The notes under the pieces are model-generated. The model had not been told where the DNA came from and did not search any database. It saw only the letters and a list, made by a program, of their open reading frames with translations. Below, piece by piece: positions 16,089 through 57,635 of a stretch of 64,000 nucleotides of DNA (position 1 is the stretch's first letter; every line of letters starts with the position of its first letter). Position numbers and translations under genes: made by a program. This stretch comes from Eledone cirrhosa (lineage: Eukaryota), in NCBI GenBank assembly GCA_964016885.1, contig OZ024758.1:31744001-31808000 (forward strand), in the 5' to 3' direction.

Positions 16089-17570
16089 ACACTGTTATTT
16101 ATATCATAATTTAATTTACATCTTTCATCCTCCTGGGACTCCTCAAGGAGGATGAAACGTGTGTAAATTAAATTATGACATAAATAATGGTGTTTGGTAA
16201 CATTTTAATGTAAAAATTTGCTCTATGTAAGAATAGGCTTGCACATTAGGATTTCATATGTATTTTTTTAAATTGTATGAAGCCGTGTGTACAGTTTATT
16301 ATGAGTTGTATTTTTGAGCTGATATAAATTTTTCACCTACATCTTTCCAGTAGGTGCATGTGAGTGTATTTGACTAATTTACAGGAAACTCATGAAACTG
16401 ACTAAAGATTACATTAATAGTTTCCTGTCAATAAGACTAAAGATTAATTTGAAATGTGTGCAACCCAACACAAATGACCATGATAATAGTTGATCACTAT
16501 AGTCTATTTTTTTTACTTCAGAGGTACTTTACGTTATATTTTAAAGCTATTATTTATAGTAGCTGAGTTCAAATCCCACCGAGGTTAACTTTGCTTTTCA
16601 TCCTTACAGGGTCGATAAAATAAAGTACCAGTAATACACTGGAATAATTGCCGGCCTTGTGCCAAAAGTAGAAACAATTATTTATAGTAGCTGACTATTA
16701 TGGTCGTTTGTGTTAGGACTCAAACATTTAAAATTTTCCCAATGCTTCCTAAGTCCAATTGGTTGGATAACATCAATGAGCTTGGCTGGTCACATTAAGG
16801 GATCCAGCCAAATCAGTTGGAGGTGGTTGCTTCTGATGGGACTCGCTGGAAGGAGTGTTTGAGGACTCTGCCCCATGACCTTCCTAGGAATAAGTGGGCG
16901 AAGAAGAAAAGAATCTTCCTAAGTCAACCGCTTTGTTTACACTGTAAAATACATTCTAATGAATGCTATCAGTTACACTTTCTCTTTTTATTGCTGACAC
17001 ATTGGTTTTAAATAGACTTGCAAGTATTTTGGTTTTTTCTGATTGCTTGACTTGGTTGAAACAGCAATCAAATGTCCTCAAACTACACTCTAACATCTTA
17101 TATAAGGAAATGTGGGATAATATAGTCTGGGTTGTGTTATTCCTGTAAAGAAGGGTTGATCATGATTTGAATACTTTTGGTCACAGATCTATTTGATCAG
17201 GTTTGTCTTGACTTCTTTTTTGCCCACTTATTACTGTGGGGTGGGAGTCATGAGGACAGAGTCCTCAAACGCTCCTTCCAGTGGGTCCTGTCAGAAGCAA
17301 CCGTCTTCAATTGATTTGACTGGATCCCCAAGCGTGACCAGCTGAGCTCATGGATGTTATCAAACCATCTTGCTCGGGGTCTGCCAAACAACAATAATTA
17401 TCACTATCGAGAAAGTATCCAACACAGCAAGGTTTCTACTTCTATTGAAATATTCAAAGAACAACATTTCTGAGCTTAAAGAGGGGTGAGGTGTACTTAT
17501 GTCATTTTTCAAATTCATCTAAATGTTTACTTATTCCAAAACTAATGATATGGTTATATTTTTTCAATAG

Positions 17571-17628
17571 ATTGTGAAAGGCCATTTAGGAATGGTTGAG
17601 CCTGATGTAGAAATTGATGATGGCAAAG
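17571..17628 (+). CDS. UBA2: UBA2 coding exon (UFD domain)
   Basis: IVKGHLGMVEPDVEIDDGK; ag/gt. Confidence 0.92.
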
Positions 17629-17794
17629 GTAATATTTTTAAGGTGTTTTCTCCTTCCCCTTTCATTTCAAATTTACAATTAGATAGCTATTTCACCGATG
17701 TAATCTGTTCTGGAAACATTAATAAATCTAATCTTTCTGTAATGGATTAGTAATTATTAACTGAAACCATATAAGTTGGTTATTAGGAAGGGCT

Positions 17795-18047
17795 TCATCA
17801 TCATCATTATTTTACGTCCGCTTTTCCCTGCTTGCAAGGGTGGGACGGGAATTGATTCTGGCTTGATTTCTACAGCTGGATGCCCTTCCCAACACCAACC
17901 TCATTTACAGTGAGTGCTGGGTGCTTTTTTTTTTGTCGTGGCACCTCCATGACCACTTTGCAGTGGAATGATAGGGACCCCAGTCCCTATCATCTCATTT
18001 CTACAGCTGAGTAAACTGGAGTAATGTGAAATAAAGTGTCTTGCTCA
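17795..18047 (-). mobile_element. 5'-truncated family A SINE with the alternative RTE tail
   Basis: Reverse complement matches 30675-30910. Confidence 0.85.
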
Positions 18048-18568
18048 CTTATTCTGGTATCATCTGAAGTTGAATTAGAATGGTTTAGAAGAAACTAATA
18101 TGAATAATGTTAACTAAATTTATGTTAGTTAATAAAGAGTTTGTACCTAGCTTGGTCTAGGGCTATTGTAGAAGACACTTTCCTAATATGTCATACGCTG
18201 TAATAGATCCAAAAATCATGTTGCAAAGAAAACATCTTAACCACACAACCATGTCTACACCAATTGTAGTTTCTACAGTTATATATAAAAGGTGGGGCCC
18301 AGCATGGCTTCAGCCTGCCGGCTGGAACACGTTATTTAATGATATGGAAATCTATACTTTAATTTCTTTGTATGGTTTTGCATTATTTTGAAAATGATCC
18401 TTGATTTAACATGCTACTATAATTTCAGAATACTATCTGCAAGGTCTTATTAATGTAGTGGTTATATCTTAGTTTGTAGTAGTTCCTTACTTTTATTGTA
18501 GGGATTTAGTCTTGAAACTGGTATAATTGTTGCTATGGGACTGTAATTTCTATCTTTTATTGTTTTAG

Positions 18569-18607
18569 GGACTATCATCATAACCAGTGAAGAAGGAGAA
18601 ACTGAAG
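18569..18607 (+). CDS. UBA2: UBA2 39-nt coding exon
   Basis: GTIIITSEEGETE; ag/gt, phase 1-1. Confidence 0.92.
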
Positions 18608-19586
18608 GTAATATCTGTCTCTCACTGTTTTTCCTTATCTCATCTCTCTCTCTCCCTCTTTTGTTTGAACTATTTGGGTTTGTATTTTACTCCTCAAAAC
18701 TGCCCAAGTGTACTCAGCTGAAAATGAGTACCAGTAACTTTAGTAACATTGTTGCAGTATAATTTATATAAAGTATCATGAGATATGTGGTTATGATTGT
18801 TTTGAGAAAACCAGCACAATGCAAGAGTCAAACTAGAGTAAAGTAAGAAAAACAAAATGTAAACAATTGAAAATAAGGGAAGTGTGGTGTTGATGGTGAC
18901 CAGTGCTCTTCATCATCGTTGTCACCATTTAATATTCATTTTCCTCGCTAGCATGGGTTAGCAGGGTTGTCCTATTATGTGACAAATGCTATCACATACA
19001 ACTGTTTTTGGTTTTATTTCTAATGCCAAGCACATAATGGGTGCTTTTTGATGTGACACCACGATTACTTCACAGTGTGGGTGGGGTGCTTTTTATTGTG
19101 GCACCAAAACAATCTCTTTATAGTGCAGACTAGGTGTTTTTTGTTGTGACACCACAATAATCACTTTACAGTGTGTACTGGGTGCCTTTTGTTGTCACAA
19201 CACAATGAGTAGTTCAGTGTGGACTGCCCCAATAGCCAAATCAGCTTCATGCAGCTCTCACCTGCTCTCTATGATTCGTGGATACACAATAGTGTGTGTC
19301 AGTATGTTTTATTATTTATCAAGTTTTTGCTTTTTGAGGATTTGTTTGTATTTATATATTTTTTATTGACATATATTTACCATATATACTTGAATATAAG
19401 TTAAGGAACATGTGACCAAAAAATTGATGGTGAAATGGCAGTGGGATAGGGATGTCAGCTTATATATGGGGTTTGTATTTTTGCCCATTTCTCAGACATA
19501 AAATAGGGGGATTGCTTATATTTGAGTATATGTGGTATATTTTGTTTTGATGATACTTTTATAAATTTATATTTTAATTTTATTAG

Positions 19587-19692
19587 AAAATAACGAGAAG
19601 ATGCTGAGTGATTTCAATATAGGAAATGGAACTCGCTTAAAGTGTGATGATTTTCTTCAAAACTACAATCTTGTCATAACCATTCAACATGT
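19587..19692 (+). CDS. UBA2: UBA2 coding exon
   Basis: NNEKMLSDFNIGNGTRLKCDDFLQNYNLVITIQH; ag/gt. Confidence 0.95.
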
Positions 19693-19999
19693 GTGAGTAT
19701 TACAACTTCTAGTCTCTAAATCTCTAAATCCTTTTCAGGAAAATATACTGAAGTGCCTTTCAAATATTTTTGATATTATATGAAATTCAAAATAAGTAGA
19801 TTCTGTATAAAAACCATAGTTCTATACTTTATCAATTGTACTACTAAGGCATAATACCATATACTTTGAACAGATCTATACTAATTGCTTTCTTTGCATA
19901 GTATTGATCATAATCAAATTCTTTATAAATAATAATGAAAATTATTGTGACAGTGTATGAGTCATGATATACACACAGATACATGTGTGCATGTGTATG

Positions 20000-20330
20000 G
20001 AGGGGGGATATCAGGTGTAGTGTTGGAGAATTTCAGGAAGCATGGAGGTTTTAAAAATGCAGTGTCCCGACAGCTAACAACTGATGTAGGTAGTTTTGTT
20101 CCATGCTTCAGGAAAATGTTTTTGAAAGTCATAGGGGCTGTAGTGTTTTCTGATTTTGTAAGCATGTTCATGGGTGTTAGACACATGGAATTCAAAAAGA
20201 TGCTCAGAGTTGTTCTTGGAAAGATGGTTAATAATTTTGTGAGTGTCTACCAAGTCAGTTGCCAGATGTCGGAGCTTTAATGTATCTATGCCCAGGGAAG
20301 CAAGGCATTCAGAGTATGGTAGATGCCAAA
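20000..20330 (-). mobile_element. CR1/L2-like LINE 3' fragment
   Basis: HLPYSECLASLGIDTLKLRHLATDLVDTHKII...HAYKI...WNK resembles the ORF2 C-terminus of the CR1 group. Confidence 0.7.
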
Positions 20331-20987
20331 AATGTTGCTTAGCATTTATAATAGAACTATCATAATACTTATTTGTTGATTTGGTGCATAAATCATTGTT
20401 GCACACACATAAAATACTTGCTGACTCTTCCAGACTAAGCTATTAAAAGACTTCAATCTGTATTTCACTTACAGATTCCATTTATCAATAAATCATCATC
20501 GTTTAATGTCCATTTGATGCAGGAATGGTCGGGAGACTGTGTCTCGCTCATACGGAAGTGACTCTGGCAGGTTTTTTACAGTTGGATGCCCTTCCTAACA
20601 CCAACCACATTTACAAAATTGACATATAGTGACATTATACATAAATCATTTTTTTAATGCATTTATCATCATCATCATCACCATTTAATACCTATTTTCC
20701 ACACTAGCATGGGTTAGACGAGTTGCCCCCGTTGTGAGACAAATCGGATCAGGTAACCATGTCTTGCTCATACAGAACTGTTTCTGGCTTGATTTCTATG
20801 GCTAGATGCCCTTCCTAGCACCAACCACATATAAATAATTACTCCATTAACTTTTAAAAACAGCTCTTTATAATGAGGCTCAAGGCCTTATAAAGTATTG
20901 AATATAAGTTTTTTATTCTGTGAAACAAGTCGGATCATACAGGACAGTTTCTAACTTGGTTTCTATGGCTTAACCCTTTAGCATTCG

Positions 20988-22520
20988 CAAAGACTGGTGC
21001 AGCAATATTCTCATAAATTGCTACAAAGGTAGAGGGGATGCTCTGGAGAGGAGCAATTATAGGGGTATAAAACTGATAGATCAGGTTATGAAAGTGGCAG
21101 AAAGGATATTAGCACAACTAAATAGAGAAAGGGTCAAACTAGATGAGATGCAGTTTGGTTTTGTGCCTGGGAACAGTACAACAGATGCCCTCTTCTTGGT
21201 GAGACAATTGCAAGAGAGGTTCTTAGAGAAAAATAAGCCACTATACTTAGCCTTTGTTGACCTAGAGAAGGCCTTTGATAGGGTACCCCGATCTGTCATC
21301 TGGTGGTCCCTAAGGAAGCTAGGTGTTGAGGAATGGCTTGTGAGGACAGTGCAAACTTTGTACAGAGGTACTCTCAGTAAAGTCAGGGTAGGAATGGAGT
21401 TTAGTGAGGAATTCTAGATACAAGTAGGAGTACATCAAAGTTCGGTCCTCAGCCCGCTCTTGTTCATTATAGTCCTCCAAGCCATAACAGAGGAGTTTAA
21501 GACTGGCTGTCCATGGGAACTTCTCTATGCTGACGATCTGGTTCTTATAGCAGAATCAGTAGAGGAGCTAGAGAATAAATTCTGGCTATGGAAACAGCAG
21601 TTGGAAGCAAGAGGACAGAGTGAATCTAGCTAAGACAAAAGTGTTGATGAGTAGAAAAGAGGACAAAACCCTGGTTCCGTCTGGGAAATGGCCATGTTCG
21701 ATATGCAGAAAAGGAACTGGCATAAATTCTATAAAATGCACACAATGCAGATCCTGGGTACACAAGAGATGTAGCGGGATAGCAGGCAAACTAATAGGTA
21801 GGGAGAAATATGTATGCAGTAGATGTACAGGGAAATTAGACAGTAGAAGTCGCATTGATAGACACATTTTTCAAATGCAGGAGGGCGCTATAGAAGTGGT
21901 GGATAGCTTCCGGTACCTAGGAGATCAGATTAGCATGGGAGGAGGATGTTCTGAGGCCATAGTATCTAGAATAAGGACGAGTTGGAAGAAGTTTAGAGAG
22001 CTGCTTCCTCTGTTGACGAAGAAGGGTTTCTCCCTGCGTACGAAAGGCCGGTTGTATGATGCCTGTGTGAGGAGTGCGATGCTGCATGGTAGTGAGACAT
22101 TGGCAGCAACTGCAGAGGATATGCGATGGCTGGAGAGAAATGAGGCAAGCATGCTCCGTTGGATGTGCAGTGTAAATGTGCGTGAACGACCCAGCATAAA
22201 TGTGTTGAGAGAGAAACTGTCTGAGAGGGATAGAATGTAGTGTACGGGAGAGAAGACTGAGGTGGTATGGACATGTGATGCGCATGGAGGATGACCGATG
22301 AGTGAAGAAGTGCCAGGAAATGCCAGTTGAAGGAAGACGTGGTAGAGGTAGACCACGAAAAACATGGGCGGAGGTGGTGAGAACAGACCTCAGATCATTG
22401 AAGCTCACGGTGGAGATGACGAAGGACCGTGACGAGAGTAGAGATACTGTGCTGAATAAGACCCGTCCCACCCTTGCAAGCAGGGAAAAGCGGATGTAAA
22501 ATGATGATGATGATGATGCT
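20988..22520 (+). pseudogene. 5'-truncated, disrupted RTE LINE (RT to 3' end, (GAT)n tail)
   Basis: QFGFVPG, AFVDLEKAFDRV, YADD; in-frame stop at 21415-21417 and frameshifts. Confidence 0.95.
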
Positions 22521-22634
22521 TATCTGTTCGCATTATTTTAAATAAAGTACCAGTAACGTACTGGGATAATTGCTGGCCTTGTGCCAAAAGTAGAAACAAT
22601 TATTTTGAGTTAATCATTTGTTGATGCAGGAATG

Positions 22635-22822
22635 GGCGGTGGATAAGCAGTATCGGTAGAGGGTCTGACGCCATGCTTTGCAGCAAAGAGTTACGGCCCT
22701 TTATGGTCTGAGTTCAAATCCCGTCGAGGTTAACTTTGCCTTTCATCCTTACGGAGTCGATAAAATAAAGTACCAGTAATACACTGGGATAATTGCTGGC
22801 CTTGTGCCAAAAGTAGAAACAA
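22635..22822 (+). mobile_element. tRNA-derived SINE (family B), with a duplicated tail at about 22540-22615
   Basis: GGCGGTGGA...GAGTTCAAATCCC...CCTTTCATCC...AAAAGTAGAAACAA. Confidence 0.88.
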
Positions 22823-23002
22823 TTATTTTGAGTTAATCATACTCAAGAGAGTTATCAATTTTATTTGTTTGTAATTTTCTTAATTTTCTATGTGCAGGCT
22901 TGAAATTTTGTCAGTAGATGTTTAAATATCAATAATTTACAATTATATTATTTTACTTGATTTTTTTTTTTGGTCAAATTTGACTTTTATGGGCAGGTGA
23001 AA

Positions 23003-23605
23003 TTAATTAATAGGGGCATTTGAAGTATCAACCAGGTGCAAATACTGGTTTAATTTTAAATACGTTGTTTTCGGCATAATACTTGATATATAAGGATCAC
23101 TAAACCTTTTATCAGTGCTCCAGTAATTCCACAGTCTTGGAAATTGTTTTATACCAAACATAATATTTACGGTAAAAAATGCTTGCATTTCCGCAGCATC
23201 TGTCGGTTGCCAAACAGATCGGGTTTTCCTTGATTTGAAATCTGTTGTTGGGCATATCGATTAATTACTTCTGCCACAACTTCGAAGAAAGTTTGTGGTA
23301 AAAACAAAAAGAAATAATCCAGTGCTTTAGCATTGGGAGCTAATGTGTGTTGTGGACCAGTATTTTGAATAAAATCAGGAACATATATTAGTGGTATTTT
23401 TCAACCACGTTGCTGTAATATTTTCAATGGCGTCCCGGAAACCTCCGTTTTCACTTTCAAAACAATCATCGTCGGATGAAATTTCAGAAATATAAACATC
23501 AGATTCATTTGAAGATAAATCACTAATATTATCGTTTGTTTTTTGTTTATTCTGAATGTTGTGTGTAAAACCTTCAAAGTCGGTATCGCTACTTTCATAA
23601 ACCAT
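23003..23605 (-). pseudogene. piggyBac transposase N-terminal remnant
   Basis: Acidic N-terminus MVYESSDTDFEGF...SDDD and YWSTDKRF...IMPK..YLKLNQYLHLVD, typical of piggyBac/PGBD transposases; frameshifted. Confidence 0.78.
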
Positions 23606-24000
23606 GTTGAAACATAAAAAATGTTCTACTTTCAACGTTAAAAAAACACTTGTTGTTTTCAGTTGTTTCACTATATTAAGTGTTAATTTTCGCGGTAAGG
23701 GCCTAATCTCGCAGTAATCTCGAATTGACGAGATTTTGATGATGGTTTGTTTATTTTTAGAACAATATTTTAGTGTGGGTGTTATCAGCCGGTTTCGGGC
23801 GGTTTGAACAAATGAAGGGGAAATAATTTCGGGCGGTTTGAACACTAAAGGGTTAATGTTCTTCCTAACACTAACCATATTTGTATACTAAATAATTTAT
23901 TCCTAACTTTAAAACATCTGACATAGACTATGGCTTCATTATAAAGCATTTAATGTTTTTTTTTATTAATTTCTTTTTATTTTGTTACTCATTTTTTCAG

Positions 24001-24122
24001 TGAAAAATTAGAAGATAATGTTGAATTTTTAGTCTCTGGTGATGCAGAGGCTTTGAAAAGTAAACAAGAGAACACAGCAAGTACTTCTAGCTCATCACCA
24101 GTACCATCCACATCAAAATCAG
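24001..24122 (+). CDS. UBA2: UBA2 coding exon
   Basis: EKLEDNVEFLVSGDAEALKSKQENTASTSSSSPVPSTSKS; ag/gt, phases consistent. Confidence 0.88.
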
Positions 24123-25505
24123 GTGGGATTTCTTTACATATAACTATGTTTGTATCTGTGTCATCACAGTAGTGTGAAAAGACTGGGTTTATTAGTAAGT
24201 CAGTGGATCAGTTCAGAATAAGGAATCGATTGACAGGATCCCAGATGTTATTCGCTTTCCGAGTGAATGGAGCTTGTCAAATCGGACCAAGGAAACAATG
24301 TTTCCATTGGTCTTTCCATCATCTACCAGTTGCAACTCCAATTAAGTGTCTTGCTAAAGGACAAAACGCATCACCCAGTCTGGGAATTGAACTCGCAACC
24401 TCATGATTGCAAATCCAATTCTCTAACCACTAAACCATCTGCAACTTATCCTACAATTATATCATTTAGATACTAACCTATATTAACTAATAAGTTTAAC
24501 ATATTTGTGGTTTTTACAGGTCTGCTTTGAAATTAATAAAGTTCACTACTTTAATCTAATTAGTGATAGGGCCGCTGCTTTGATAGAATCTAGAAAATTG
24601 TTTGTGATAATTCAACAAATAGTCGGAATGTTCTATACATTGAAGGGAGTCCGTACTTGTCAAACAAACCTCATAATGAGGTACTAAATTACTAATTTTT
24701 CTTATTCCATGAGAGAAATAGATCTTGTGTAAGAAAACAACTTGGAGGAAGAAGGCTAATGCTTCTTCACCCACTTCTTCCTGAAAGGGTCATGGGGGCA
24801 GAGTCCTCAAACACTCTTTCCAGTGGGTCCTGTCAGAAGCAACCATCTCTAGTTAATCTAGCAGGTTCCCCAAGCATGACCAGCCAACCATCTTGCTTGG
24901 GGTCTACCCCTGGGTCTCCTGCCGGTTGGTTTTTTTCCCGTAAAGTATGTATTCTTTCTTGAGACATTCTAACCACATGTCCATAGTATCAGAGCTGTGA
25001 TCTCTCAATTCGGAGAAGTAGCAGCTCTACCAGGAGTGACTCTCTGATCTCTGAGCTATGCACTTTATTGAGTAACGTTATTCCAAAGACCCTTTGGAAG
25101 AATCCTATTTCAGCCACTTGCATTTGTGATAGTATTCTTTCGGTATTCTGAAAGCTAATGCTGTTTGAGTAAAATCGATGATCATAATCATCGATTTTAC
25201 ATCTTTTTCGTGCTGGCATTGTTTGAATGAGACTTAAAACAATTATTCACAGCCGGATGGCCTTCCTGACATCAGCTCTTTTAGTTACTTAGGGCAGGGT
25301 TGCTTGATTTGTGGATGGTGGATTATGATGGACCCCCATTTGTCTCAGTTGTGAAATTAAGATATTTTGTTTGTGAAGGGGCTATAATATGTAAGTGGAC
25401 AGTGTTTAATAGTGGGTGAACTGAGGATAATATTATGACATGTTCAGTTACTATATATATATATATATATGAATCTGAATCTATATATATATATATATAT
25501 GAAAT

Positions 25506-28500
25506 ATGAATCTGCGAGCTACCAAGCACCCACGTGAAGCGCCAACCCAGAGACCCTCCCCTACGAGTGTCGACAAATGCCCAAAACTCCGAGTTGGTAC
25601 CATCAATGTAGGCTCAATGAAAGGAAGAGCAGGAGAAATCGTAGAAATGCTAGAGCGAAAGGAAGTTGATGTATGCTGTGTGCAAGAGACTAGATGGAGA
25701 GGAGGGTCTGCTAGAGTCCTTGTAGGAAAAAGCCAGTGCTACAAATTTTTCTGGGTGGGAAATGACGATGGGATGGGTGGTGTAGGTATACTATTAGCTG
25801 ACAAGTGGGTAGATAAAGTAATCTCAGTGTACAGGGTAAATGCAAGAATCATTAAACTCAGACTAGTCCTGAATAAGACAATTACCACAATAATATCAGC
25901 TTACGCACCCCAATCGGGGCTGCCAGACGAACTTAAGGATAGGTTTTACGAGTCCCTAATACACACTACTGCTCTAACAGACGACAAGGACTTCCTAATC
26001 ATTGCAGGAGATTTTAACGGACACGTAGGTAAACACTGCGACGGCTTCAATAGAGTACATGGAGGCCATGGAGTTGGCACAAGGAATGAGGAAGGATTCA
26101 GACTTCTAGAATTCTGCGACGCCAATGACATGTCGATATGTAACACAAACTTTAAAAAACCCGACAACCACCTGATCACCTATAGATCAGGGGAGCACTC
26201 TAGTCAGTTAGATTTTATTCTCATCAGAGGACGTGACAGATGGACGGTCGTAAACACAAAAGCCTTCCCTAGTGAGGAATGTACATCCCAACATAGCTTA
26301 GTTGTCAGCGACCTCACGGTCAGAACTAGACGAGCTCTGAAACAGAGGCCAACCTGGAGAAGAAAGATCTGGAAGCTGAAAGTCCCCTCAACCAGTAACA
26401 GATTTAAAGATATTTTACTCAACGCCTACGACAGTAAAGAAGAACAGATAGAGACATTTAACGTAGAAGAGAACTGGGAGTTCCTAAAAAATAACTTACT
26501 AGAGGCGACGGATGAGGTTTGTGGCTGGAGTAAGACCTCAAGCAGGAGGAGAGTGACTTGGTGGTGGAACAATAAGGTAGATGAAGCAGTCAAGGCCAAG
26601 AGACAGGCATGGAAAGAATGGAAGAACGGGGGGAGCAGGGTACATTACATAGAGACCAAGAGGGAAGCTAGGCGACAAGTATACTTAGCTAGGAGGGAAG
26701 CAGAGGATAGAAAATTCAAGCATGTTTTACAACGTGAGGACCAGAAACAGGAGGTATTCAAGATTGCGAGGCAGTGTGTCAGAGATAGTTGTGATGTCAT
26801 TGGAGAGAAGTGTATCCGGAATGATAAAGGTGAGCTTGCCCTCACAAGTGCTGAGAAGAAAGATGCATGGAAGAGTCATTATGATAGATTACTAAATGAG
26901 GAGAATGCATGGGAAGAAGAGACCCTACCCCACGTAGACCCTATAGAGGGACCAGCAGTACAAGTCAGCGGCAGCGTAGTAAGTAAGGCAATCAGAGATA
27001 TGAAGATAGGGAAGGCAACCGGTCCATCGGGTATAGCTGCCGAGATGCTGAAGGCATCTGGGTCTGTAGGTCACACTATAACCACACGTATCGTTAACCA
27101 GGTAATACTAGAGGGGGCCATACCAAAAGATTGGTGCAGTAGCATCATTGTCAACTGCTACAAAGGTAAAGGCGATGCACTAGATAGAGGAAACTATAGA
27201 GGTATAAAGTTGATGGACCAGGTCATGAAAGTAACAGAAAGAGTTATAGCACAGCTGATTAGGGACCGGGTGAATATAGACGAGATGCAATTTGGGTTTG
27301 TTCCAGGGAAAGGCACCACTGATGCGCTCTTCCTTGTGAGGCAATTACAGGAAAAGTACCTAGCTAAAAGTAAGCCACTCTACTTGGCATTTGTCGACCT
27401 TGAGAAAGCCTTTGACAGAGTTCCACGTGCAGTAATCTGGTGGGCTCTTAGAAAACTAGGAGTAGATGAATGGCTTGTGAAAGCGGTACAAGCCATGTAT
27501 AGGGGAGCAGTCAGCAAAGTTAGGATTGGCAATGAGTATAGCGAGGAATTTAGCGTACAGGTTGGGGTCCACCAGGGCTCTGTTCTTAGCCCTCTCCTGT
27601 TCATCATAGTCCTGCAGGCAATAACGGAGGAGTTTAAGACCGGATGCCCATGGGAACTCCTGTATGCTGATGACCTCGCACTCATAGCTGAATCTATGGT
27701 AGAACTAGAGAATAAATTCCAAACCTGGAAGCAGGGACTAGAGAGAAAGGGCCTCAAAGTCAACATGACAAAGACTAAGGTCCTTATAAGTAGACGAGAA
27801 AACAGAACCCAGATCCCCTCAGGGAAATGGCCTTGCTCAGTATGTAGGAAAGGTGTAGGTAGGAACTCCATTCTTTGCCCCAAATGCAAACAATGGGTAC
27901 ACAAGAGATGTAGCGGGATCTCAGGAAGCTTAATTAAGAATGTAGGATTCACATGCAGCAGCTGTGCTGAAACAGCAAGCAAACAGCCACAGGAAACAAG
28001 TACCACCAATCTCTGGGAGGGCCCTGTAGAAACAGTAGACAGCTTCTGCTACCTAGGTGACCGAATTAGCAACGGAGGTGGGTGCTCAGAAAGTACAATA
28101 ACTAGGGTAAGAACGGGATGGAAGAAGTTTAGGGAACTACTACCACTGCTAGCTGCAAAAGGCTTCTCCCTCAGAATGAAAGGCAGACTGTATGATGCGT
28201 GTATCCGAACAGCGATGTTGCATGGTAGTGAGACCTGGGCGCTGAAGGTGGAAGACTTACGTAGATTAGAGAGAAACGAAGCCTGCATGCTCCGATGGAT
28301 GTGTAACAGTAATATACGTGAACGACAAAGCATAAATGAATTGAGAGAGAGACTGAGCATAAGAGGAATCAAATGCTGCGTGCAGGAGAGGCGGTTACGC
28401 TGGTATGGACATGTGATGCGTATGAAGGATGACAGCTGCATAAAAAGGTGCAGAGCACTAGAAGTTGATGGAAACCGCGGAGTGGGGAGACCCAAGATGA

Positions 28501-28625
28501 CTTGGGATGAGGTGATAAGAGCCGACCTTACCCAACTACACCTCTCAAAGTCAATGACACACGACCGTGACTTCTGGCGTCACGCAGTAATACAGGGTAC
28601 CCGACCTCCCATGGGTACATGCTGA
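25506..28625 (+). CDS. RTE-clade LINE ORF (APE endonuclease + reverse transcriptase + PHD-like finger), 1039 aa, uninterrupted
   Basis: GTINV, VQETRW, AYAPQ, GDFNGH, QLDFIL (APE); NYRGI, DLEKAFD, QGSVLSP, YADD (RT); LRWYGHV. Confidence 0.97.
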   Translation: MNLRATKHPREAPTQRPSPTSVDKCPKLRVGTINVGSMKGRAGEIVEMLERKEVDVCCVQETRWRGGSARVLVGKSQCYKFFWVGNDDGMGGVGILLADKWVDKVISVYRVNARIIKLRLVLNKTITTIISAYAPQSGLPDELKDRFYESLIHTTALTDDKDFLIIAGDFNGHVGKHCDGFNRVHGGHGVGTRNEEGFRLLEFCDANDMSICNTNFKKPDNHLITYRSGEHSSQLDFILIRGRDRWTVVNTKAFPSEECTSQHSLVVSDLTVRTRRALKQRPTWRRKIWKLKVPSTSNRFKDILLNAYDSKEEQIETFNVEENWEFLKNNLLEATDEVCGWSKTSSRRRVTWWWNNKVDEAVKAKRQAWKEWKNGGSRVHYIETKREARRQVYLARREAEDRKFKHVLQREDQKQEVFKIARQCVRDSCDVIGEKCIRNDKGELALTSAEKKDAWKSHYDRLLNEENAWEEETLPHVDPIEGPAVQVSGSVVSKAIRDMKIGKATGPSGIAAEMLKASGSVGHTITTRIVNQVILEGAIPKDWCSSIIVNCYKGKGDALDRGNYRGIKLMDQVMKVTERVIAQLIRDRVNIDEMQFGFVPGKGTTDALFLVRQLQEKYLAKSKPLYLAFVDLEKAFDRVPRAVIWWALRKLGVDEWLVKAVQAMYRGAVSKVRIGNEYSEEFSVQVGVHQGSVLSPLLFIIVLQAITEEFKTGCPWELLYADDLALIAESMVELENKFQTWKQGLERKGLKVNMTKTKVLISRRENRTQIPSGKWPCSVCRKGVGRNSILCPKCKQWVHKRCSGISGSLIKNVGFTCSSCAETASKQPQETSTTNLWEGPVETVDSFCYLGDRISNGGGCSESTITRVRTGWKKFRELLPLLAAKGFSLRMKGRLYDACIRTAMLHGSETWALKVEDLRRLERNEACMLRWMCNSNIRERQSINELRERLSIRGIKCCVQERRLRWYGHVMRMKDDSCIKRCRALEVDGNRGVGRPKMTWDEVIRADLTQLHLSKSMTHDRDFWRHAVIQGTRPPMGTC

Positions 28626-28930
28626 AGCATATAAACAATATGCCCCCCCCCCCCCCCCCCCCCCCACCACCGCAAGGTGGTCGTGGAGGTGCCACGGCAA
28701 AAAAGCACCCAGCCCACACTGTAAAGTGGACGTGTAGGCGCCACGAAAAAGCACCCAGCACTCACTGTAAATGAGGTTGGTGTTAGGAAGGGCATCCAGC
28801 TGTAGAAATCAAGCCAGATCAGTTCCTGTATGAGCAAGGCATGGTCAGCCGACCAGACACTGCCCACAACAGGACAACCCGTCTAACCCATGCTAGCGTG
28901 GAAGAACGGACGTAAAACGGTGATGATGAT
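25506..28930 (+). mobile_element. Young RTE LINE inserted in a (TA)n microsatellite of the last UBA2 intron
   Basis: Intact ORF, 3' UTR of about 300 nt with a C23 tract, (GAT)n tail, (TA)n on both sides. Confidence 0.93.
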
Positions 28931-29043
28931 ATATATATATATATATATATATATTGACTGATTTATACATGTTTTCAGTACATGTATTGGTTCCTCTCTT
29001 TATATATTCCATAGAAAAATAAACTAACTCTATTCTTTTGTAG

Positions 29044-29240
29044 AATTGCCTGTTGCTGACTACAATGATGATTTAATAATCATGGAAGAAGAACAATCGG
29101 AAGCTATGGATCTGAGCCCAACAAAAAGAAAGAGGAAGATTTCTGGTCAAAGTTCAGACGCTACTTATTCTAAAAGTAAAAAATCAAAACGAGAGCCCGA
29201 TGTAGAATGCAGCAATGATTCTGAAATAATAATTTTGTAA
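29044..29240 (+). CDS. UBA2: UBA2 terminal coding exon
   Basis: LPVADYNDDLIIMEEE...PTKRKRKIS...SEIIIL*; NLS-like and SIM-like motifs as in the SAE2 C-terminus; AATAAA at 29292. Confidence 0.88.
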
Positions 29241-32437: not shown

Positions 32438-33316
32438 TGTAAGGGGATGATACTTAGCCACACAACCTATAGTGCGTTTAAACACATGAAGACGAGGCAA
32501 CTAAAAGAAGAGTCCAAGAGTGAGAGATCTTGTCTTATGGACAATATCTTTGTTGACAGAAAAAGACGGATCAACTGGACTAGTTTGACCCCCCGTGTTT
32601 AATCAGCGAGTATCAGACATGCCAGACTTTAAAAATCCAAACACGGAGTACCATGAGATTTTAGATAATGAAAGCTATACCCATTTTCACCAGAACGAGG
32701 AGTTCTCCCCGCTGGACGAGGAGAGTTGACAGGTCTGCAGTATCCTCTTTAACTTCGTTAAAAGCCTGCTAATAAACTCACCATTACTACAATCTGATTT
32801 TCTTTTATCTCTTTCTTACGACTGTATTAATATATCCTCTCTTCTGTTCTTTATAGACGATCTGCTGTAGTTTAGGAAAAGTGATGATGCAGATTGTCTC
32901 GGGTAGGGAGCATTAAAGTGTAGTTATAAATGAATGCTGTTGCTGTCTTTTTCAAATTTGAAATATAGTAATAATGGATGGAAAGAATACCTTTATAGAA
33001 TGTCGAAAGGATATTAGAAGAAAGGAAAACTTATCTGTCTGTAGTCGTTGTTGTTATCTCCCTCTCTGTCGTGAGAGAGCTGATCCAGTTTGAAAGGAAT
33101 TCAAACTATAAAAACATCTTATTTTCATTTCTGTCATAATATAATTGAAGAAAAAAGAAACCCTTTATCATCCTAATCGTAATGTATATCATGGAAAAGG
33201 TATTGGTGTAAAATGTCATTAAAATTATAGATTATTAACAATATTATATATGAGACATAATCAGATGGGGAGATGTGTATCTTACGAATATAATGTTATA
33301 AATATTAAATGAAATT

Positions 33317-33426
33317 AAAAAAAATAAGGAACGCTTCACGAATTTGCGTGTCATCCTTGCGCAGGGGCCATGCTGATCTTCTCTGTATCGTTCCAATTTT
33401 AGAATATGTACTGCCGTAGCTAGTAC
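33317..33426 (-). ncRNA. RNU6: U6 snRNA, inverted copy with U52C and A100U variants
   Basis: Reverse complement GTACTAGCTACGGCAGTAC...ACAGAGAAGATCAGC...TTCCTTATTTTTTTT; TATA at -30. Confidence 0.93.
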
Positions 33427-34808
33427 AATGGCTTCTGGTAAACAACACTTTATATACATACGCTAAACCCTTCGTATAACATTTCCAGGATAGCTAATTA
33501 GCATATAATAATAGTTTATTACGTCACAATAAATAAACTGATGATTGTGTCACGTACTTAATACGTATAAGGTATTTGTATTAACATATTTATTGTCTTT
33601 AGAAAAGAATACATTGTATAATGTAGTCTCGGGTACAATATGACAGAATTGGAAATTGGATGTTGTTATGACTTTCAACATGGGTCTGTTCTATCAAGGA
33701 AGAAAGGGAGATAACAACAATTACTACAAATTATCAATGTTTCCCTGCTCTGAAGTTGTTTAACCAAGTTATTCCTTGCCCCCTTCATTTAAACTATAGA
33801 TACATCATATTCCTTAAACTCTTATTGAATTTTCTGCAAAACTACACTTTAATGCCATCCCTCCAAATTTAATTTCCTCTTTATTTTCTATAGAATATAT
33901 TTTTTCATGGAATTTACAGATGCACCATTTCCAAAGTACAGATTACATTTGTGCATAACTGTAATTATATATATCATCTTTCTCTGTCTGTTGTAAATTT
34001 AAGATCTGGTAGCAATATGATATATAATTCAAGTGAATGGAGCAAATACTTTGAGAAAATGTCGAAACACTATCAGGTAATGGTGATGTCACAGATTTTA
34101 TATACAAACACAATATTTCTATATTTAAAAAACAGAAAACAAATTGATAAATACAATAAATAAATAGTTTTTAAAGGAATTCTATCGAACAAATCGTAAT
34201 CTATATGTTCGAAATTGTGTCTCTGAAAGATTTCAGGTAAAAAACATGTATTATTGAGAAAATGAGGACGAGACAAATTTGGTGAGGGAGGTAGCACTAA
34301 AATCTGGTGAATCATAAATGCCGTTTCTGATCTTCGTAAGTTTTAGGACTTTCAGCAATTTGAAATACACTTACGATAAATGGAGAGAATACCTTTATAG
34401 AATATTGAAACGATATTAGAAGAAATTAAATCTTATCTGTCTGTAGTCGTTGTTGTTATCTCCCTCTCTGTCGTGAGAGAGCTGATCCAGTTTGAAAGGA
34501 ATTCAAACTATAAAAACATCGTATCTTCACTTCTGTCATAATATAACTGAGACTACATTATACGATGTATTGTATTCTAAAGATATCAGATAGACATTAA
34601 ATGGAGATATGGTTGTTAATACCAACATAGAAACCAGACCATTACTGTTTTTACATTGCATCTTCTTATTAGGTATATGATGAAGTGACAATTCAGCACG
34701 TTATATACATACACACTCACATGTACAACATTTACAGGATTGATAATTAGCATATAATAAATGGTTATGACGACACAATATATTGAATTAAGATTATGTT
34801 ACGTATTT

Positions 34809-34883
34809 AATTGGAACGATACAGAGAAGATTAGCATGGCCCCTGCGTGTCAACGCAAATTCGTGAAGCGTTCCATATTTTTT
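34809..34883 (+). pseudogene. 5'-truncated U6 pseudogene at the inversion junction, ISL disrupted
   Basis: Starts at AATTGGAACG (nt 29); CAAGGATGAC replaced by TGTCA; no promoter in the sense orientation. Confidence 0.93.
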
Positions 34884-36604
34884 AATTTCATTTAATATTT
34901 ATAACATTATATTCGTAAGATACTATTAAATGAATACGTTTACATTTCATTGAATAACATGTAATCATTTTTACAGTTGAGGGTCACATCACCCCTCTGA
35001 TAATGTCTCATATATAATATTGTTAATAATCTATAATTTTAATGACATTTTACACCAATACCTTTTCCATGATATACATTACGATTGGGTTGATAAAGGT
35101 TTTCTTCTTTCTTCAGTTAATTCCCGTATTTTTAATACTTTCATTATTCTATATATTTATGAACGTTAACTCTCATTTCCTCCAACTACGTCTAGGAATT
35201 AAATACGTAACATAATCTTAATTCAATATATTGTGTCGTCATAACCATTTATTATATGCTAATTATCAATCCTGTAAATGTTGTACATGTGAGTGTGTAT
35301 GTATATAACGTGCTGAATTGTCACTTCATCATATACCTAATAAGAAGAAGCAATGTAAAAACAGTAATGGTCTGGTTTCTATGTTGGTATTAACAACCAT
35401 ATCTCCGTTTAATGTCTATCTGATATCTTTAGAATACAATACATCGTATAATGTAGTCTCAGATATATTATGACAGAAGTGAAGATAAGATGTTTTTATT
35501 GTTTGAACTCTTTTCAAACTGGATCAGCTCTCTCACGACAGAGAGGGAGATAACAACAACGACTACAGACAGATAAGATTTACTTTCTTCTAATATCGTT
35601 TCAATATTCTATAAAGGTATTCTCTCCATTTATTGTAAGTGTATTTCAAATTGCTTAAACTCCTAAAACTTACGAAGATCAGAAACGGTAATTCTAATTA
35701 AACAGATTTTAGTGCTACCTCCTTCACCAAATTTGTTTCGTCCTCATTTTCTCAATAATACATGTTTTTTTACCTGAAATCTTTCAGAGACACAGTTTCG
35801 AACATATAGATTACGATTTGTTCGATAGATTTCCTTTAAAATCTATTTATTTATTGTATTTATTAATTTGTTTTCTGTTTTTTAAATATAAAAATATTGT
35901 GTTTGTATATAAAATCTGTCACATCACCATTACCTGATAGTGTTTCGACATTTTATCAAAGTATTTGCTCCTTTCACTTGAATTATATATCATATTGCTA
36001 CCAGATCTTAAATTTACAACAGACAGAGAAAGATGATATATATAATTACAGTTATGCACAAATGTTATCTGTACTTTGGAAATGATGCATCTGTAAATTC
36101 CATGACAAAATATATTCATTATAGAGAAAATAAAGAGGAAGTTAAATTTGGAGGGATGGCATTAAAGTGTAGTTTTGCAGAAAATCCAATTCTAATCTGT
36201 ATAATTTGTAGGAGTTTATGAATATGATGTATTTATAGTTTAAATGAAGGGGCCAAAGAATAACTTGGTTAAACAACTTCAGAGCAGGAAACATTGATAA
36301 TTTGTAGTAATTGTTGTTATCTCCCTTTCTTCCTTGGTAGAACAGACCCATGTTGAAAGTCATAACAACATCCAATTTCCAATTCTGTCATATTGTACCC
36401 GAGACTACATTATACAATGTCTTCTTTTCTAAAGACAATAAATATGTAAATACAAATACCATATCGGTATTAATTATGTGACACAATGATCAGTTTATTT
36501 ATTGTGACGTAATAAACATTTATCATATGCTAATTAGCTATCCTGGAAATTTTGTACAAAGGTCTTAGAGTATGTATATAAAGTGTTGTTTACCAGAAGC
36601 AACT

Positions 36605-36628
36605 GTACTCGCTACGGCAGTACATATT

Positions 36629-36661
<33 letters not shown>

Positions 36662-36713
36662 GGCCCCTGCGCAAGGATGACACGCAAATTCGTGAAGCGT
36701 TCCATATTTTTTT
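36605..36713 (+). ncRNA. RNU6: U6 snRNA (C6 allele)
   Basis: ACAGAGA box, AGC triad, ISL, T7 terminator, TATA at 36575. Confidence 0.98.
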
Positions 36714-36963
36714 AATTTCATTTAATATTTATAACATTATATTCGTAAGATACACATCACCCCATCTGATTATGTCTCATATATAATATTGTTAATAATC
36801 TATAATTTGAATGACATTTTACACCAATACCTTTTCCATGATATACATTACGATTGGGTTGATAAAGGTTTTCTTTTTTCTTCAGTTAATTCCCGTATTT
36901 TTAATACTTTCATTATTCTATATATTTGTGAACGTTAACTCTCATTTCCTCCAACTACATCTA

Positions 36964-37101
36964 GGAATTAAATACGTAAAATAATCTTAATTCAATATAT
37001 TGTGTCGTCATAACCATTTATTATATGCTAATTATCAATCCTGTAAATGTTGTACATGTGAGTGTGTATGTATATAACGTGCTGAATTGTCACTTCATCA
37101 T
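36964..37101 (+). promoter_or_regulatory. Second, diverged U6-type promoter paralog (P2), repeated in each + strand unit
   Basis: About 80% identity (74/93 ungapped, hand alignment) to the U6 promoter; shares TATGCTAATTA and GTATGTATATAA (TATA at 37071). Confidence 0.7.
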
Positions 37102-38231
37102 ATACCTAATAAGAAGAAGCAATGTAAAAACAGTAATGGTCTGGTTTCTATGTTGGTATTAACAACCATATCTCCGTTTAATATCTATCTGATATATTTA
37201 GAATACAATACATCGTATAATGTAGTCTCAGATATATTATGACAGAAGTGAAGATAAGATGTTTTTATAGTTTGAATTCCTTTCAAACTGGATCAGCTCT
37301 CTCACGACAGAGAGGGAGATAACAACAACGACTACAGACAGATAAGATTTACTTTCTTCTAATATCGTTTCAATATTCTATAAAGGTATTCTCTCCATTT
37401 AGTGTAAGTGTATTTCAAATTGCTTAAACTCCTAAAACTTACGAAGATCAGAAACGGTAATTCTAATTAACCAGATTTTAGTGCTACCTCCCTCACCAAA
37501 TTTGTTTCGTCCTCATTTTCTCAATAATACATGTTTTTTACCTGAAATCTTTCAGAGTCACAATTTCTAACATATAGATTACGATTTGTTAGATAGAATT
37601 CCTTTAAAAACTATTTATTTATTGTATTTATTAATTTGTTTTGTTTTTTAAATATAAAAATATTGTGTTTGTATATAAAATCTGTCACATCACCATTACC
37701 TGATAGTGTTTCGACATTTTATCAAAGTATTTGCTCCTTTCACTTGAATTATATATCATATTGCTACCAGATCTTAAATTTACAACAGACTGAGAAAGAT
37801 GATATATATAATTACAGTTATGCACAAATGTTATCTGTACATTGGAAATGGTGCATCTGTAAATTCCATGACAAAATATATTCATTATAGAGAAAATAAA
37901 GAGGAAGTTAAATTTGGAGGGATGGCATTAAAGTGTAGTTTTGCAGAAAATCCAATTCTAATCTGTATAATTTGTAGGAGTTTAAGAATATGATGTATTT
38001 ATAGTTTAAATGAAGGGGCCAAAGAATAACTTGGTTAAACAACTTCAGAGCAGGAAACATTGATAATTTGTAGTAATTGTTGTTATCTCCCTTTCTTCCT
38101 TGGTAGAACAGACCCATGTTGAAAGTCATAACAACATCCAATTTCCAATTCTGTCATATTGTACCCGAGACCACATTATACAATGTCTTCTTTTCTAAAG
38201 ACAATAAATATGTAAATACAAATACCATATC

Positions 38232-38370
38232 GGTATTAATTACGTGACACAATCATCAGTTTATTTATTGTGACGTAATAAACTTTTATCATATGCTAAT
38301 TAGCTATCCTGGAAATTTTGTACAAAGGGCTTAGAGTATGTATATAAAGTGTTGTTTACCAGAAGCCATT
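38232..38370 (+). promoter_or_regulatory. U6 type-3 Pol III promoter (representative copy, P1)
   Basis: TATATAAA at -30 (38341); upstream block at the expected PSE position; octamer-like ATGCTAAT and CRE-like TGACGTAA. Confidence 0.85.
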
Positions 38371-38394
38371 GTACTCGCTACGGCAGTACATATT

Positions 38395-38427
<33 letters not shown>

Positions 38428-38479
38428 GGCCCCTGCGCAAGGATGACACGCAAATTCGTGAAGCGTTCCATATTTTTTT
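38371..38479 (+). ncRNA. RNU6: U6 snRNA (C6 allele)
   Basis: Full U6 sequence with T7. Confidence 0.98.
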
Positions 38480-47500: not shown

Positions 47501-49149
47501 AATTTCATTTAATATTTATAACATTATATTCGTAAGATACACATCACCCCATCTGATTATGTCTCATATATAATATTGTTAATAATCTATAATTTTAATG
47601 ACATTTTACACCAATACCTTTTCCATGATATACATTACGATTGGGTTGATAAAGGTTTTCTTTTTTCTTCAGTTAATTCACGTATTTTTAATACTTTCAT
47701 TATTCTATATTTTTGTGAACGGTAACTCTCATTTCCTCCAACTACATCTAGGAATTAAATACGTAACATAATCTTAATTCAATATATTGTGTCGTCATAA
47801 CCATTTATTATATTCTAATTATCAATCCTGTAAATGTTGTACATGTGAGTGTGTATGTATATAACGTGCTGAATTGTCACTTCATCATATACCTAATAAG
47901 AAGAAGCAATGTAAAAACAGTAATGGTCTGGTTTCTATGTTGGTATTAACAACCATATCTCCGTTTAATATCTATCTGATATATTTAGAATACAATACAT
48001 CGTATAATGTAGTCTCAGATATATTATGACAGAAGTGAAGATAAGATGTTTTTATAGTTTGAATTCCTTTCAAACTGGATCAGCTCTCTCACGACAGAGA
48101 GGGAGATAACAACAACGACTACAGACAGATAAGATTTACTTTCTTCTAATATCGTTTCAATATTCTATAAAGGTATTCTCTCCATTTATTGTAAGGGTAT
48201 TTCATATTGCTTAAACTCCGAAAACTTACGAAGATCAGAAACGGTATTTATGATTCACCAGATTTTAGTTAGTGCTACCTCCCTCACCAAATTTGTTTCG
48301 TCCTCATTTTCTCAATAATACATGTTTTTTACCTGAAATCTTTCAGAGACACAATTTCGAACATATAGATTACGATTTGTTAGATAGAATTCCTTTAAAA
48401 ACTATTTATTTATTGTATTTATTAATTTGTTTTGTTTTTTAAATATAAAAATATTGTGTTTGTATATAAATCTGTGACATCACCATTACCTGATAGTGTT
48501 TCGACATTTTCTCAAAGTGTTTGCTCCTTTCACTTGAATTATATATCATATTGCTACCAGATCTTAAATTTACAACAGACAGAGAATGATGATATATATA
48601 ATTACAGTTATGCACAAATGTTATCTGTACTTTGGAAATGGTGCATCTGTAAATTCCATGACAAAATATATTCATTATAGAGAAAATAAAGAGGAAGTTA
48701 AATTTGGAGGGATGGCATTAAAGTGTAGTTTTGCAGAAAATCCAATTCTAGTCTGTATAAGTTGTAGTAGTTTAAGGAATATGATGTATTTACTGTTTAA
48801 ATGAAGGGGGCAAAGAATAACTTGGTTAAACAACTTCAGAGCAGGGAAACATTGATAATTTGTAGTAATTGTTGTTATCTCCCTTTCTTCCTTGATAGCA
48901 CAGACCCATGTTGAAAGTCATAACAACATCCAATTTCCAATTCTGTCATATTGTACCCGAGACTACATTATACAATGTCTTCTTTTCTAAAGACAATAAA
49001 TATGTAAATACAAATGCCATATCGCTATTAATTACGTGACACAATCATCAGTTTATATATTGTGACGTAATAAACTTTTATCATATGCTAATTAGCTATC
49101 CTAGAAATTTTGTACAAAGGGGTTAGAGTATTTATATAAAATGTTGTTT

Positions 49150-49326
49150 CTACTTTAGACACAAGGCCAGCAATTATCCAGTACATTACTGGTACTTTAT
49201 TTTATCGACCTCGTAAGGATGAAAGGCAAAGTCAACCTCGGCGGGATTTGAACTCAGATCGTAAAGGGACGTAACTATGCTGGAAAGCATGGCGTCCGAC
49301 CCTCTACCGATACTGCCAATCCACCG
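49150..49326 (-). mobile_element. Family B SINE inserted at the U6 TATA box, 15-bp TSD
   Basis: TATAAAATGTTGTTT at 49135-49149 and 49327-49341. Confidence 0.95.
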
Positions 49327-49354
49327 TATAAAATGTTGTTTACCAGAAGCTATT

Positions 49355-55557: not shown

Positions 55558-56643
55558 TCTATATATATAAAACTGTGGTTGTCTGTCTGTCTATCGATTT
55601 TTGGCACACATCTCCTCTTAGAATCTCTCACGGAATTGCACCGAAATTGCTATACTTGTACATTGAGCCCTAGCGAAGACATCGGAAAAAAAAAATTTCA
55701 AATTGACCCACCCTATGTCACGAAATCGAATATAATGTATCGATTTTTGAGCGTAAGTTATCAGTTATTTCCCTTTGTTCTGTTTACATTGAGCGTCTTA
55801 CGTAAAAAATTACGCTGGCTTTCTCAGCGTTCGAGCCAGCAAAATATTGACCTGCAAAGTTCATCAGTTCGAACACTAAGCTTCCGTTTTGCTTCATTTC
55901 CATTTAAAAGCATTTTAAAACAATATTTTTACTTGAAAACAAGTCTATTTAAAGACTACGTAAAACAAGCAAATATTTCAGGCGTGCAGACAGATAGTCG
56001 TGCAGAGAGGTGATATAGGCGTGCAGACAGACATAACTGATAATTTGGTTACGCTAATGTTTTTCTCTGCGTTGCAGTGTTTACATTTTCGATCTTTGTT
56101 AATAAATAACCAGTGCAGTTTTTATCCCCAGCATCCTCTTTTATTATAACATTCGGGTTATCGTTATGTTTTCTTAACTTCATAAGGCATATTGTTGGTT
56201 GAGGGAATATTAATCAAAAACACCACATGCAAGTCTGCACAGTAGACACTACAGTTTTTAAGCCAAAAAAGAAACTTAACATTGTAACTTTAACACAGCT
56301 ACTGAGCGACCCCGAGCAACGCCGGGCTTTACTGCTAGTAACTGATAATTTGGTTACGCTAATGTTTTTCTCTGCGTTGCAGTGTTTACATTTTCGATCT
56401 TTGTTAATAAATAACCAGTGCAGTTTCTATCCCCAGCATCCTCTTTTGTTATAACATTTGGGTTATCGTTATGTTTTCTTAACTTCATAAGGCATATTGT
56501 TGGTTGAGGGAATATTAATCAAAAACACCACATGCAAGTCTGCACAGTAGACACTACAGTTTTTAAGCCAAGAAAGAAACTTAACATTGTAACTTTAACA
56601 CAGCTACTGAGCGACACCGAGCAACGCCGGGCTTTACTGCTAG
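55558..56643 (+). mobile_element. Non-autonomous Helitron with a duplicated 305-nt 3' end
   Basis: Inserted between A and T of GTTTCAA|TATTC (empty in other units); 5' TC, 3' CTAG, CCGAGCAACGCCGG hairpin, no TSD. Confidence 0.93.
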
Positions 56644-57635
56644 TATTCTATAAAGGAATTCTCTCCATTTATTGTAAGTGTATTTCAAATTGCTTAAACT
56701 CCGAAAACTTACGAAGATCAGAAACGGCATTTATGATTCACCAGATTTTAGTTAGTGCTACCTCCCTCACCAAATTTGTTTCGTCCTCATTTTCTCAATA
56801 ATACATCTTTTTTACCTGAAATCTTTCAGAGTGACAGTTTCGAACATATAGATTACGATTTGTTAGATAGATTTCCTTTCAAAACTATTTATTTATTGTA
56901 TTTATTAATTTGTTTTTTGTTTTTTAAATATAAAAATATTGTGTTTGTATATAAAATCTGTCACATCATTATTACCTGATAGTGTTTCGACATTTTCTCA
57001 AAGTGTTTGCTCCTTTCACTTGAATTATATATCATATTGCTACCAGATCTTAAATTTACAACAGACAGAGAATGATGATATATATAATTACAGTTATGCA
57101 CAAATGTTATCTGTACTTTGGAAATGGTGCATCTGTAAATTCCATGACAAAATATATTCATTATAGAGAAAATAAAGAGGAAGTTAAATTTGGAGGGATG
57201 GCATTAAAGTGTAGTTTTGCAGAAAATCCAATTCTAGTCTGTATAAGTTGTAGGAGTTTAAGGAATATGATGTATTTATAGTTTAAATGAAGAGGGCAAA
57301 GAATAACTTGGTTAAACAACTTCAGAGCAGGGAAACATTGATAATTTGTAGTAATTGTTGTTATCTCCCTTTCTTCCTTGATAGAACAGACCCATGTTGA
57401 ATGTCATAACAACATCCAATTTCCAATTCTGTCATATTGTACCCGAGACTACATTATACAATGTATTCTTTTCTAAAGACAATAAATATGTAAATACAAA
57501 TGCCATATCGCTATTAATTACGTGACACAATCATCAGTTTATATATTGTGACGTAATAAACTTTTATCATATGCTAATTAGCTATCCTAGACATTTTGTA
57601 CAAAGGGGTTAGAGTATGTATATAAAATGTTGTTT

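Follow-up and report, generated by a model that had tools for sequence, protein, structure and literature searches.

The right half of the window (the whole 64-kb stretch of DNA analyzed here) is a tandem array of U6 snRNA genes. Besides the U6 promoter (P1), units of the array carry a second sequence of the same type (P2), which is followed by something other than U6. The preliminary description of this DNA suggested that U6 and a second small RNA gene make up a two-gene unit, with a factor-binding enhancer or a dead promoter as alternatives. We asked which of these P2 is.

The U6 array and its second promoter

Rfam returned 17 U6 matches: 15 full copies on the + strand, one on the - strand (33320-33426), and one broken copy (34778-34882). 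The array units run head-to-tail, are mostly 1.77 to 1.83 kb long, and are 96 to 99% alike. From one U6 to P2 there are about 250 to 310 nt, and from P2 to the following U6 about 1.3 kb. Exons of UBA2/SAE2 on the + strand (11800-29240) lie upstream. The UBA2 stop codon at 29238-29240 leaves a gap of about 4 kb between this gene and the array, which is therefore not intronic. Among the 11 matches to one UBA2 exon, identity was 98% to an Argonauta hians protein, 96% to Octopus sinensis, and 69% to the next named match, from which we take the DNA to be likely that of an octopod. The last UBA2 intron holds an open 1040-aa retrotransposon frame (25503-28625) with endonuclease, reverse transcriptase, and PHD-like finger domains, and positions 1-2577 are an AT-rich satellite of about 171 copies of a 16-nt repeat. 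Comparison of the array spacer with the first 32.9 kb of the window gave only short AT-rich matches, and a tRNA scan found no tRNA.

Table 1. Features of the array unit around P2, in window coordinates
Feature	Position	Strand	Basis or remark
U6 snRNA gene upstream of P2 (one of 15 full + copies)	36605..36711	+	Rfam RF00026, 115.7 bits
P2, U6 promoter paralog	36958..37084	+	79% over 92 columns to P1
Motif common to P1 and P2, presumably octamer-like (putative)	37024..37034	+	Motif position
PSE-like element of P2	37037..37055	+	16/19 identical to P1; position -66 to -48 in P1
P2 TATA box	37071..37078	+	2 nt nearer PSE than in P1
TATA-to-start leader of P2	37085..37101	+	Unlike that of P1 (2/16), common to P3
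Predicted Pol III transcript (candidate RNA), 165 nt, 28% GC	37102..37266	+	T5 at 161-165; no credible Rfam match
Predicted 5' hairpin, the part outside the inverted repeat	37102..37159	+	Pair probabilities ~0.8; z -0.68
Left arm of old inverted repeat, holding the 3' two thirds of the candidate	37158..37663	+	Alignment
T5, predicted Pol III terminator	37262..37266	+	First T4+ run, position 161-165 in 16/16 copies
P3, PSE-less paralog of P2 TATA block, leader, and first 10 nt	37664..37705	+	Score 41, above all 1000 shuffles
Right arm of inverted repeat, abutting P1	37758..38240	-	Alignment (38240-37758 vs 37158-37663)
P1, U6 promoter	38226..38370	+	TATA 38341-38348
Next U6 snRNA gene	38371..38477	+	Rfam search

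We confirmed that P2 is a paralog of the U6 promoter, as had been noticed: positions 36995-37084 align with P1 at 36497-36588 with 79.3% identity over 92 columns and one 2-nt gap (E of 1e-17 within the window). Sixteen full copies of P2 are present (15 on +, 1 on -), and a 17th is cut by the window end. By block, the identity between P1 and P2 is 27/40 in the distal part, 49/58 in the core, 16/19 in the PSE-like element, 17/19 in the TATA block, and 2/16 after the TATA. The two motifs that were said to be kept in P2 are both there, and the distance from the PSE end to the TATA is indeed 2 nt shorter, being 15 nt in 16/16 copies of P2 and 17 nt in 16/16 copies of P1. We assigned the PSE by its position (PMC5855946, in extract), not by a known mollusc consensus. 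Human U6 accepts the loss of 2 nt from the interval between its PSE and TATA, and natural spacings are 15 to 18 nt (PMC11696126, in extract). U6 starts 30 nt after its TATA, and the same offset in P2 falls on T37101, flanked by A at 37100 and 37102 (purines at +29 and +31), which agrees with the start given before at 37101-37102. Type 3 promoters prefer to start on A or G according to an excerpt of PMC5703244, and A37102 fits this preference. The first run of four or more Ts is the T5 already described, in the same relative place in every copy. Thus, P2 has a PSE-like element and a TATA at a workable spacing, a purine about 30 nt after the TATA, and a T4+ terminator, as a type 3 Pol III promoter does. 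Since T4 is the minimal terminator and T6 the fully efficient one in human cells (PMC5725217, in extract), some read-through would be expected at the T5. The T4-free run weighs little, because a run of at least 160 nt follows 30% of spacer positions by chance.

In three units, P1 is split at the TATA box by SINE-like inserts of about 190 nt (49135-49341, 57621-57827, and 59645-59851), which are flanked by a 15- to 16-nt target-site duplication and which we take to resemble an octopus repeat. U6 in these units keeps its TATA, but its PSE now lies 190 nt off, and a transcript from the displaced promoter would run into a T4 after no more than about 40 nt. One unit holds an insert at 55559-56643 that starts with TC, ends with CTAG, and contains a 305-nt tandem duplication; this is presumably Helitron-like.

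Origin and predicted fold of the candidate RNA

The last 109 nt of the candidate RNA are the start of an inverted repeat of promoter-less spacer DNA of about 500 nt, a feature from 37158 onward that is absent from the preliminary description. The arms are identical at 80/105 positions inside the candidate and 255/362 outside it (P=0.15), and the T5 is absent from the right arm. P3 sits at the center of the repeat. The P1 segment that matches the P3-like part of P2 had no significant paralog by the same comparison. Neither the upstream flanks of P3 and P2 (P from 0.14 to 0.39) nor their downstream flanks (P from 0.19 to 0.34) were significantly alike, and the idea that P3 is a degraded copy of the whole of P2, on which a relative-rate test could have been built, was rejected. 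Because the leader is common to P3 and the last 109 nt come from the inverted repeat, the candidate interval is a patchwork, put together from pieces related to spacer and placed after a duplicated promoter. Loose contig ends at 38194-38200 and 37848 (in the contig sets X1 to X3, below) hint at copies of the arm elsewhere in the genome.

The left end of the array (32955-34923) is rearranged as well, with an inverted unit (33427-34812) and the broken U6 fused to the flank of P2. One unit there is without P2 and without the 5' part of the candidate RNA, and the minus-strand U6 carries changes, one of which adjoins the AGC triad. The left end shows recent events of the same kind as the rearrangement behind the candidate interval.

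The Infernal/Rfam search proposed in the preliminary description found no family at threshold for the candidate RNA; the best match, mir-190, scored 23.3 bits where the gathering threshold is 48. We also compared the candidate with the defining features of known RNAs. Y RNAs and sbRNAs have a stem between their 5' and 3' ends and a conserved triplet pair in the upper stem. They were rejected, as the 5' end of the candidate pairs with positions 53-58, not with the 3' end, and one triplet is absent. H/ACA snoRNAs carry an H box in the hinge and an ACA 3 nt before their end, and C/D snoRNAs have C and D boxes at their ends; we found one internal D-like 4-mer and no hinge H box, terminal ACA, or C box, and rejected both. 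A Sm-class snRNA was rejected as the candidate has no match to the Sm site consensus. We take the mollusc telomere repeat to be TTAGGG and a telomerase RNA template to need more than one repeat, and the candidate was rejected as a telomerase RNA since its only match is a 5-nt partial template at the 5' end. Vault RNA is defined by internal A and B boxes, RNase P/MRP RNA by the CR-I motif, and U6atac by the U6atac box; these motifs and the corresponding Rfam matches are absent from the candidate, which has no internal A or B box, and all of these classes were rejected. An origin as a U6 pseudogene or decayed U6 was rejected, with similarity to U6 at P from 0.09 to 0.69 against shuffles; there is a 12/13 match to the U6 leader of one unit. 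The longest antisense match to U6 is 9 nt, and antisense was rejected as chance. In 7SK, lophotrochozoans included, the 5' hairpin contains a paired GAUC repeat (PMC2995076, in extract); the candidate has neither this paired motif nor an Rfam match, and 7SK was rejected. A miRNA precursor would form a stable hairpin with precise stacks of reads; one 8-mer of the candidate had no match in the 24,410 characters searched of the octopus miRNA supplement of PMC9699675.

A scan of metagenomes with the pattern common to P1 and P2 gave 0 matches, and the U6 5' pattern gave 108 loci; apart from chance matches in AT-rich sequence, none of these was like P1, P2, the candidate, or the arms. As a loose control from unrelated organisms, we looked for a whole-promoter paralog near other U6 loci and found it for 0/34 distinct promoters with sufficient flank; partial matches of 18 to 58 nt were seen for 6/34, none reaching the TATA part, and the one in control locus L050 falls in tRNA genes. 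This locus (1-3454) and L070 (1-5023) are dense Pol III clusters in an unrelated animal, with U6, SRP RNA, 5S, and many tRNAs within 3.5 to 5 kb. A viral sequence scan with the arm motif gave 0 matches.

The predicted fold of the candidate RNA spans it from the first base to the U tail, with a 5' hairpin (1-58) and a 3' domain that reaches the tail. The long 3' hairpin of the preliminary description is predicted here too, but its TGTTG/TAACA hairpin is not: in the fold predicted for the 37102 copy, 37102-37111 pair with 37151-37159 instead. The predicted folding energy is unremarkable, with z of -0.53 for the 37102 copy and -0.02 for an ancestral-type copy; this test is weak because U6 itself has a z of only -1.05. 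For the 3' domain of the candidate, z values of -1.68 and -0.67 were obtained. The GC content of the candidate equals that of the spacer. Of its 13 variable sites, 4 lie in unpaired parts of the predicted fold; pairing is kept at 5 and broken at 4. Among the pair-breaking changes, those at 37183 and 37196 are derived and present in 8/16 copies, whose hairpin is predicted to refold with its register shifted; only the inverted unit has the other two. In the 5' hairpin, 4/5 stem changes preserve pairing, and the fifth, which breaks a pair, belongs to the inverted unit. Both ends of the candidate lie in predicted stems, which was matched by 6 and 7 of 250 shuffles in a post hoc test. Thus, the structural evidence from these models is mixed.

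Variation among array units

We aligned 14 complete units, one partial unit, and the inverted unit and counted parsimony changes on a tree of these 16 units, which are not independent; expected changes were calculated from the spacer rate of 0.179 per site. In P2 (36960-37101), there were 7 changes against 25.4 expected (P<1e-4), and in U6, 5 against 19.1. The candidate RNA had 22 against 29.5 (P=0.09), the right arm 66 against 83.2 (P=0.03), and P1 43 against 25.9, which exceeds the spacer. Variants common to at least two units were found at 0/131 sites of P2, 5/165 of the candidate (P=0.049), and 80/1232 of the spacer. The inverted unit, the most distant, differed from the majority at 0/136 sites in P2, 6/165 in the candidate, 28/936 in the spacer (3.0%), and 11/145 in P1. 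There were no indels across units in P2 or in the candidate RNA. In the unit with U6 at 49355, P2 departs from the majority by 4 changes. Thus, P2 is as uniform across units as U6, and the candidate RNA is not clearly more conserved than the spacer; the near invariance between units described earlier is borne out for P2 and is not clear for the RNA.

Shared variants are absent from 36960-37103, the longest such stretch, which runs from the edge of the P2 homology to the predicted start. The probability of this 144-nt stretch was 0.011 with random placement of variants and 0.26 when clustered variants were merged. P1 must work in some units and yet is more variable than the spacer, and therefore uniformity does not simply track promoter function. 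This weakens any inference from the uniformity of P2. By reading of the variant table, five P1 variants at sites that differ between P1 and P2 carry the P2 base. The block pattern of identity between P1 and P2 excludes that both copies are neutral but still fits a neutral P2 beside a constrained P1.

Contigs X1 to X3, from one sample, cover 27, 28, and 29 of 30 spacer bins, with 36960-37346 in one contig; we did not count them as invariance because contigs drop variants. The X4 contigs, from organism B, cover 5/30 bins and match 37209-37359 with 1 difference and 37335-37426 with 4. These pieces straddle the T5, not the ends of the candidate.

P2 as a possible spacer promoter

P2 is a duplicate with intact elements that is uniform across units, and the interval predicted to be transcribed from it is made of spacer-like pieces. 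The explanation that we favor, tentatively and at somewhat less than an even chance, is that P2 is a Pol III "spacer promoter" that is selected as DNA and whose transcript is incidental. P2 would bind SNAPc and TBP and TFIIIB would load there, and Pol III would likely begin, near 37102, a short RNA whose end is predicted at the T5. P2 would probably be kept for a DNA role, that is, for factor loading and open chromatin over the U6 array, and not for the RNA sequence; selection rather than conversion would keep it uniform, and it may affect U6 output. P2 is frozen and the candidate transcript drifts near the spacer rate, as selection on the DNA element would be expected to produce. The low counts of changes in P2 and U6 next to that of the candidate, the unchanged P2 of the inverted unit, the lack of P2 indels, the fixed PSE-TATA spacing, and the variant-free stretch that ends at the predicted start all argue for this explanation. 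The variability of P1, the loss of significance of that stretch when variants are clustered, and the changes in P2 of the 49355 unit argue against it, as does the block pattern that fits a neutral P2. In insects, moreover, the PSE-TATA spacing is tightly kept (PMC1761439, in extract). The candidate is also free of indels and has its ends paired in predicted stems, which favors a role for the RNA.

It is rather unlikely, in our judgment, that P2 is a duplicate that is dead or has no function, a remnant of the same rearrangement as the arms, and is uniform through a recent sweep of gene conversion. Neutral decay of P2 alone predicts a core difference of 17 to 20%, which is close to the 11/77 seen against the P1 of the U6 at 38371. 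The distal flank and the arms outside the candidate are similarly diverged, as if of one age; the array readily makes orphan pieces, among them the inverted unit, the broken U6 fused to the P2 flank, and P3; and the invariant stretch is not significant with clustered variants. However, P2 is uniform even in the inverted unit, at a level of constraint like that of U6, and its TATA, PSE-like element, and spacing all survive, whereas P3 lost the PSE. About as unlikely, and like the dead duplicate a close rival of the spacer promoter, is that U6 shares each unit with a second gene, for a lineage-specific Pol III RNA of about 165 nt with two hairpins that arose from spacer DNA and is selected for its structure. 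Such a gene would account for the complete type 3 anatomy with its start purine and T5 in 16/16 copies, the presence of the T5 here and its absence from the promoter-less arm, the lack of indels, the predicted fold that tiles the whole RNA with its ends paired (by the post hoc test), and the preserved pairing in the 5' hairpin. The number of changes close to the spacer expectation, the 6/165 differences of the inverted unit beside the 3.0% of the spacer, the pair-breaking changes in half of the copies, the folding z values, the spacer-like GC content, and the lack of a significant peak of arm identity inside the RNA count against it. In the fuller form of this explanation, a new Pol III gene would have arisen de novo within the U6 array of octopods when a duplicated U6 promoter was joined to rearranged spacer DNA; it would now be amplified along with U6 and make a lineage-specific 165-nt two-hairpin RNA of no known class. 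This form seems doubtful to us. That the transcript belongs, in strongly diverged form, to a known class (7SK, Y/sbRNA, snoRNA, telomerase RNA, or miRNA precursor) or is a decayed U6 is highly improbable: the promoter type is that of 7SK and RNase P RNA (PMC5855946, in extract) and there are the weak mir-190 match and the match to one U6 leader, but no Rfam family reached threshold, the defining motifs are absent, and similarity to U6 is not above shuffles. For the two-gene unit of the preliminary description, the promoter side therefore stands, with all elements present, a tolerated spacing, and U6-like uniformity, but a second functional RNA gene is unproven and somewhat weakened by a conservation near that of the spacer, the broken pairs, the origin of two thirds of it in inverted promoter-less spacer, and the lack of a family. 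The factor-binding enhancer and the dead promoter together outweigh it.

Spacer promoters are known from Pol I rDNA. If an snRNA array had one for Pol III, the notion that promoter duplicates are recruited as enhancers in tandem RNA-gene arrays would reach beyond rDNA. If instead the candidate RNA is functional, the locus would be a traceable de novo birth of a Pol III gene. P1, P2, the PSE-less P3, and the three SINE-split copies of P1 form a natural series for defining the cephalopod type 3 promoter, which would be useful for native expression of guide RNAs or shRNAs. A search of the open-access literature by title listing found neither a Pol III spacer promoter in an snRNA array nor a study of a cephalopod U6 promoter.

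In rDNA, spacer promoters are extra copies of the promoter of the gene that serve as parts of enhancers and give rise to spacer RNA (PMC5765358, in extract). P2 resembles them in layout, as a gene-promoter duplicate in repeat spacers with 16 full copies. As in the Pol I rDNA of Xenopus, Drosophila, mouse, and human, there is a promoter duplicate of the same orientation in the spacer of the tandem unit; unlike these, P2 is in a U6 array and is of Pol III type 3, and its factor binding, transcription, and enhancer action are putative. It is like the type 3 Pol III genes (U6, 7SK, and RNase P RNA) in its PSE-like element and TATA near -30, its purine start, its end at a T run, and the absence of an internal A or B box. 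The candidate product differs from theirs in that it has no Rfam family, is as AT-rich as the spacer, and is less conserved than its promoter. Finally, the head-to-tail units, with their length of 1.77 to 1.83 kb and their high mutual identity, are like those of tandem snRNA and 5S arrays under concerted evolution, from which this array differs in having a second promoter copy in each unit.
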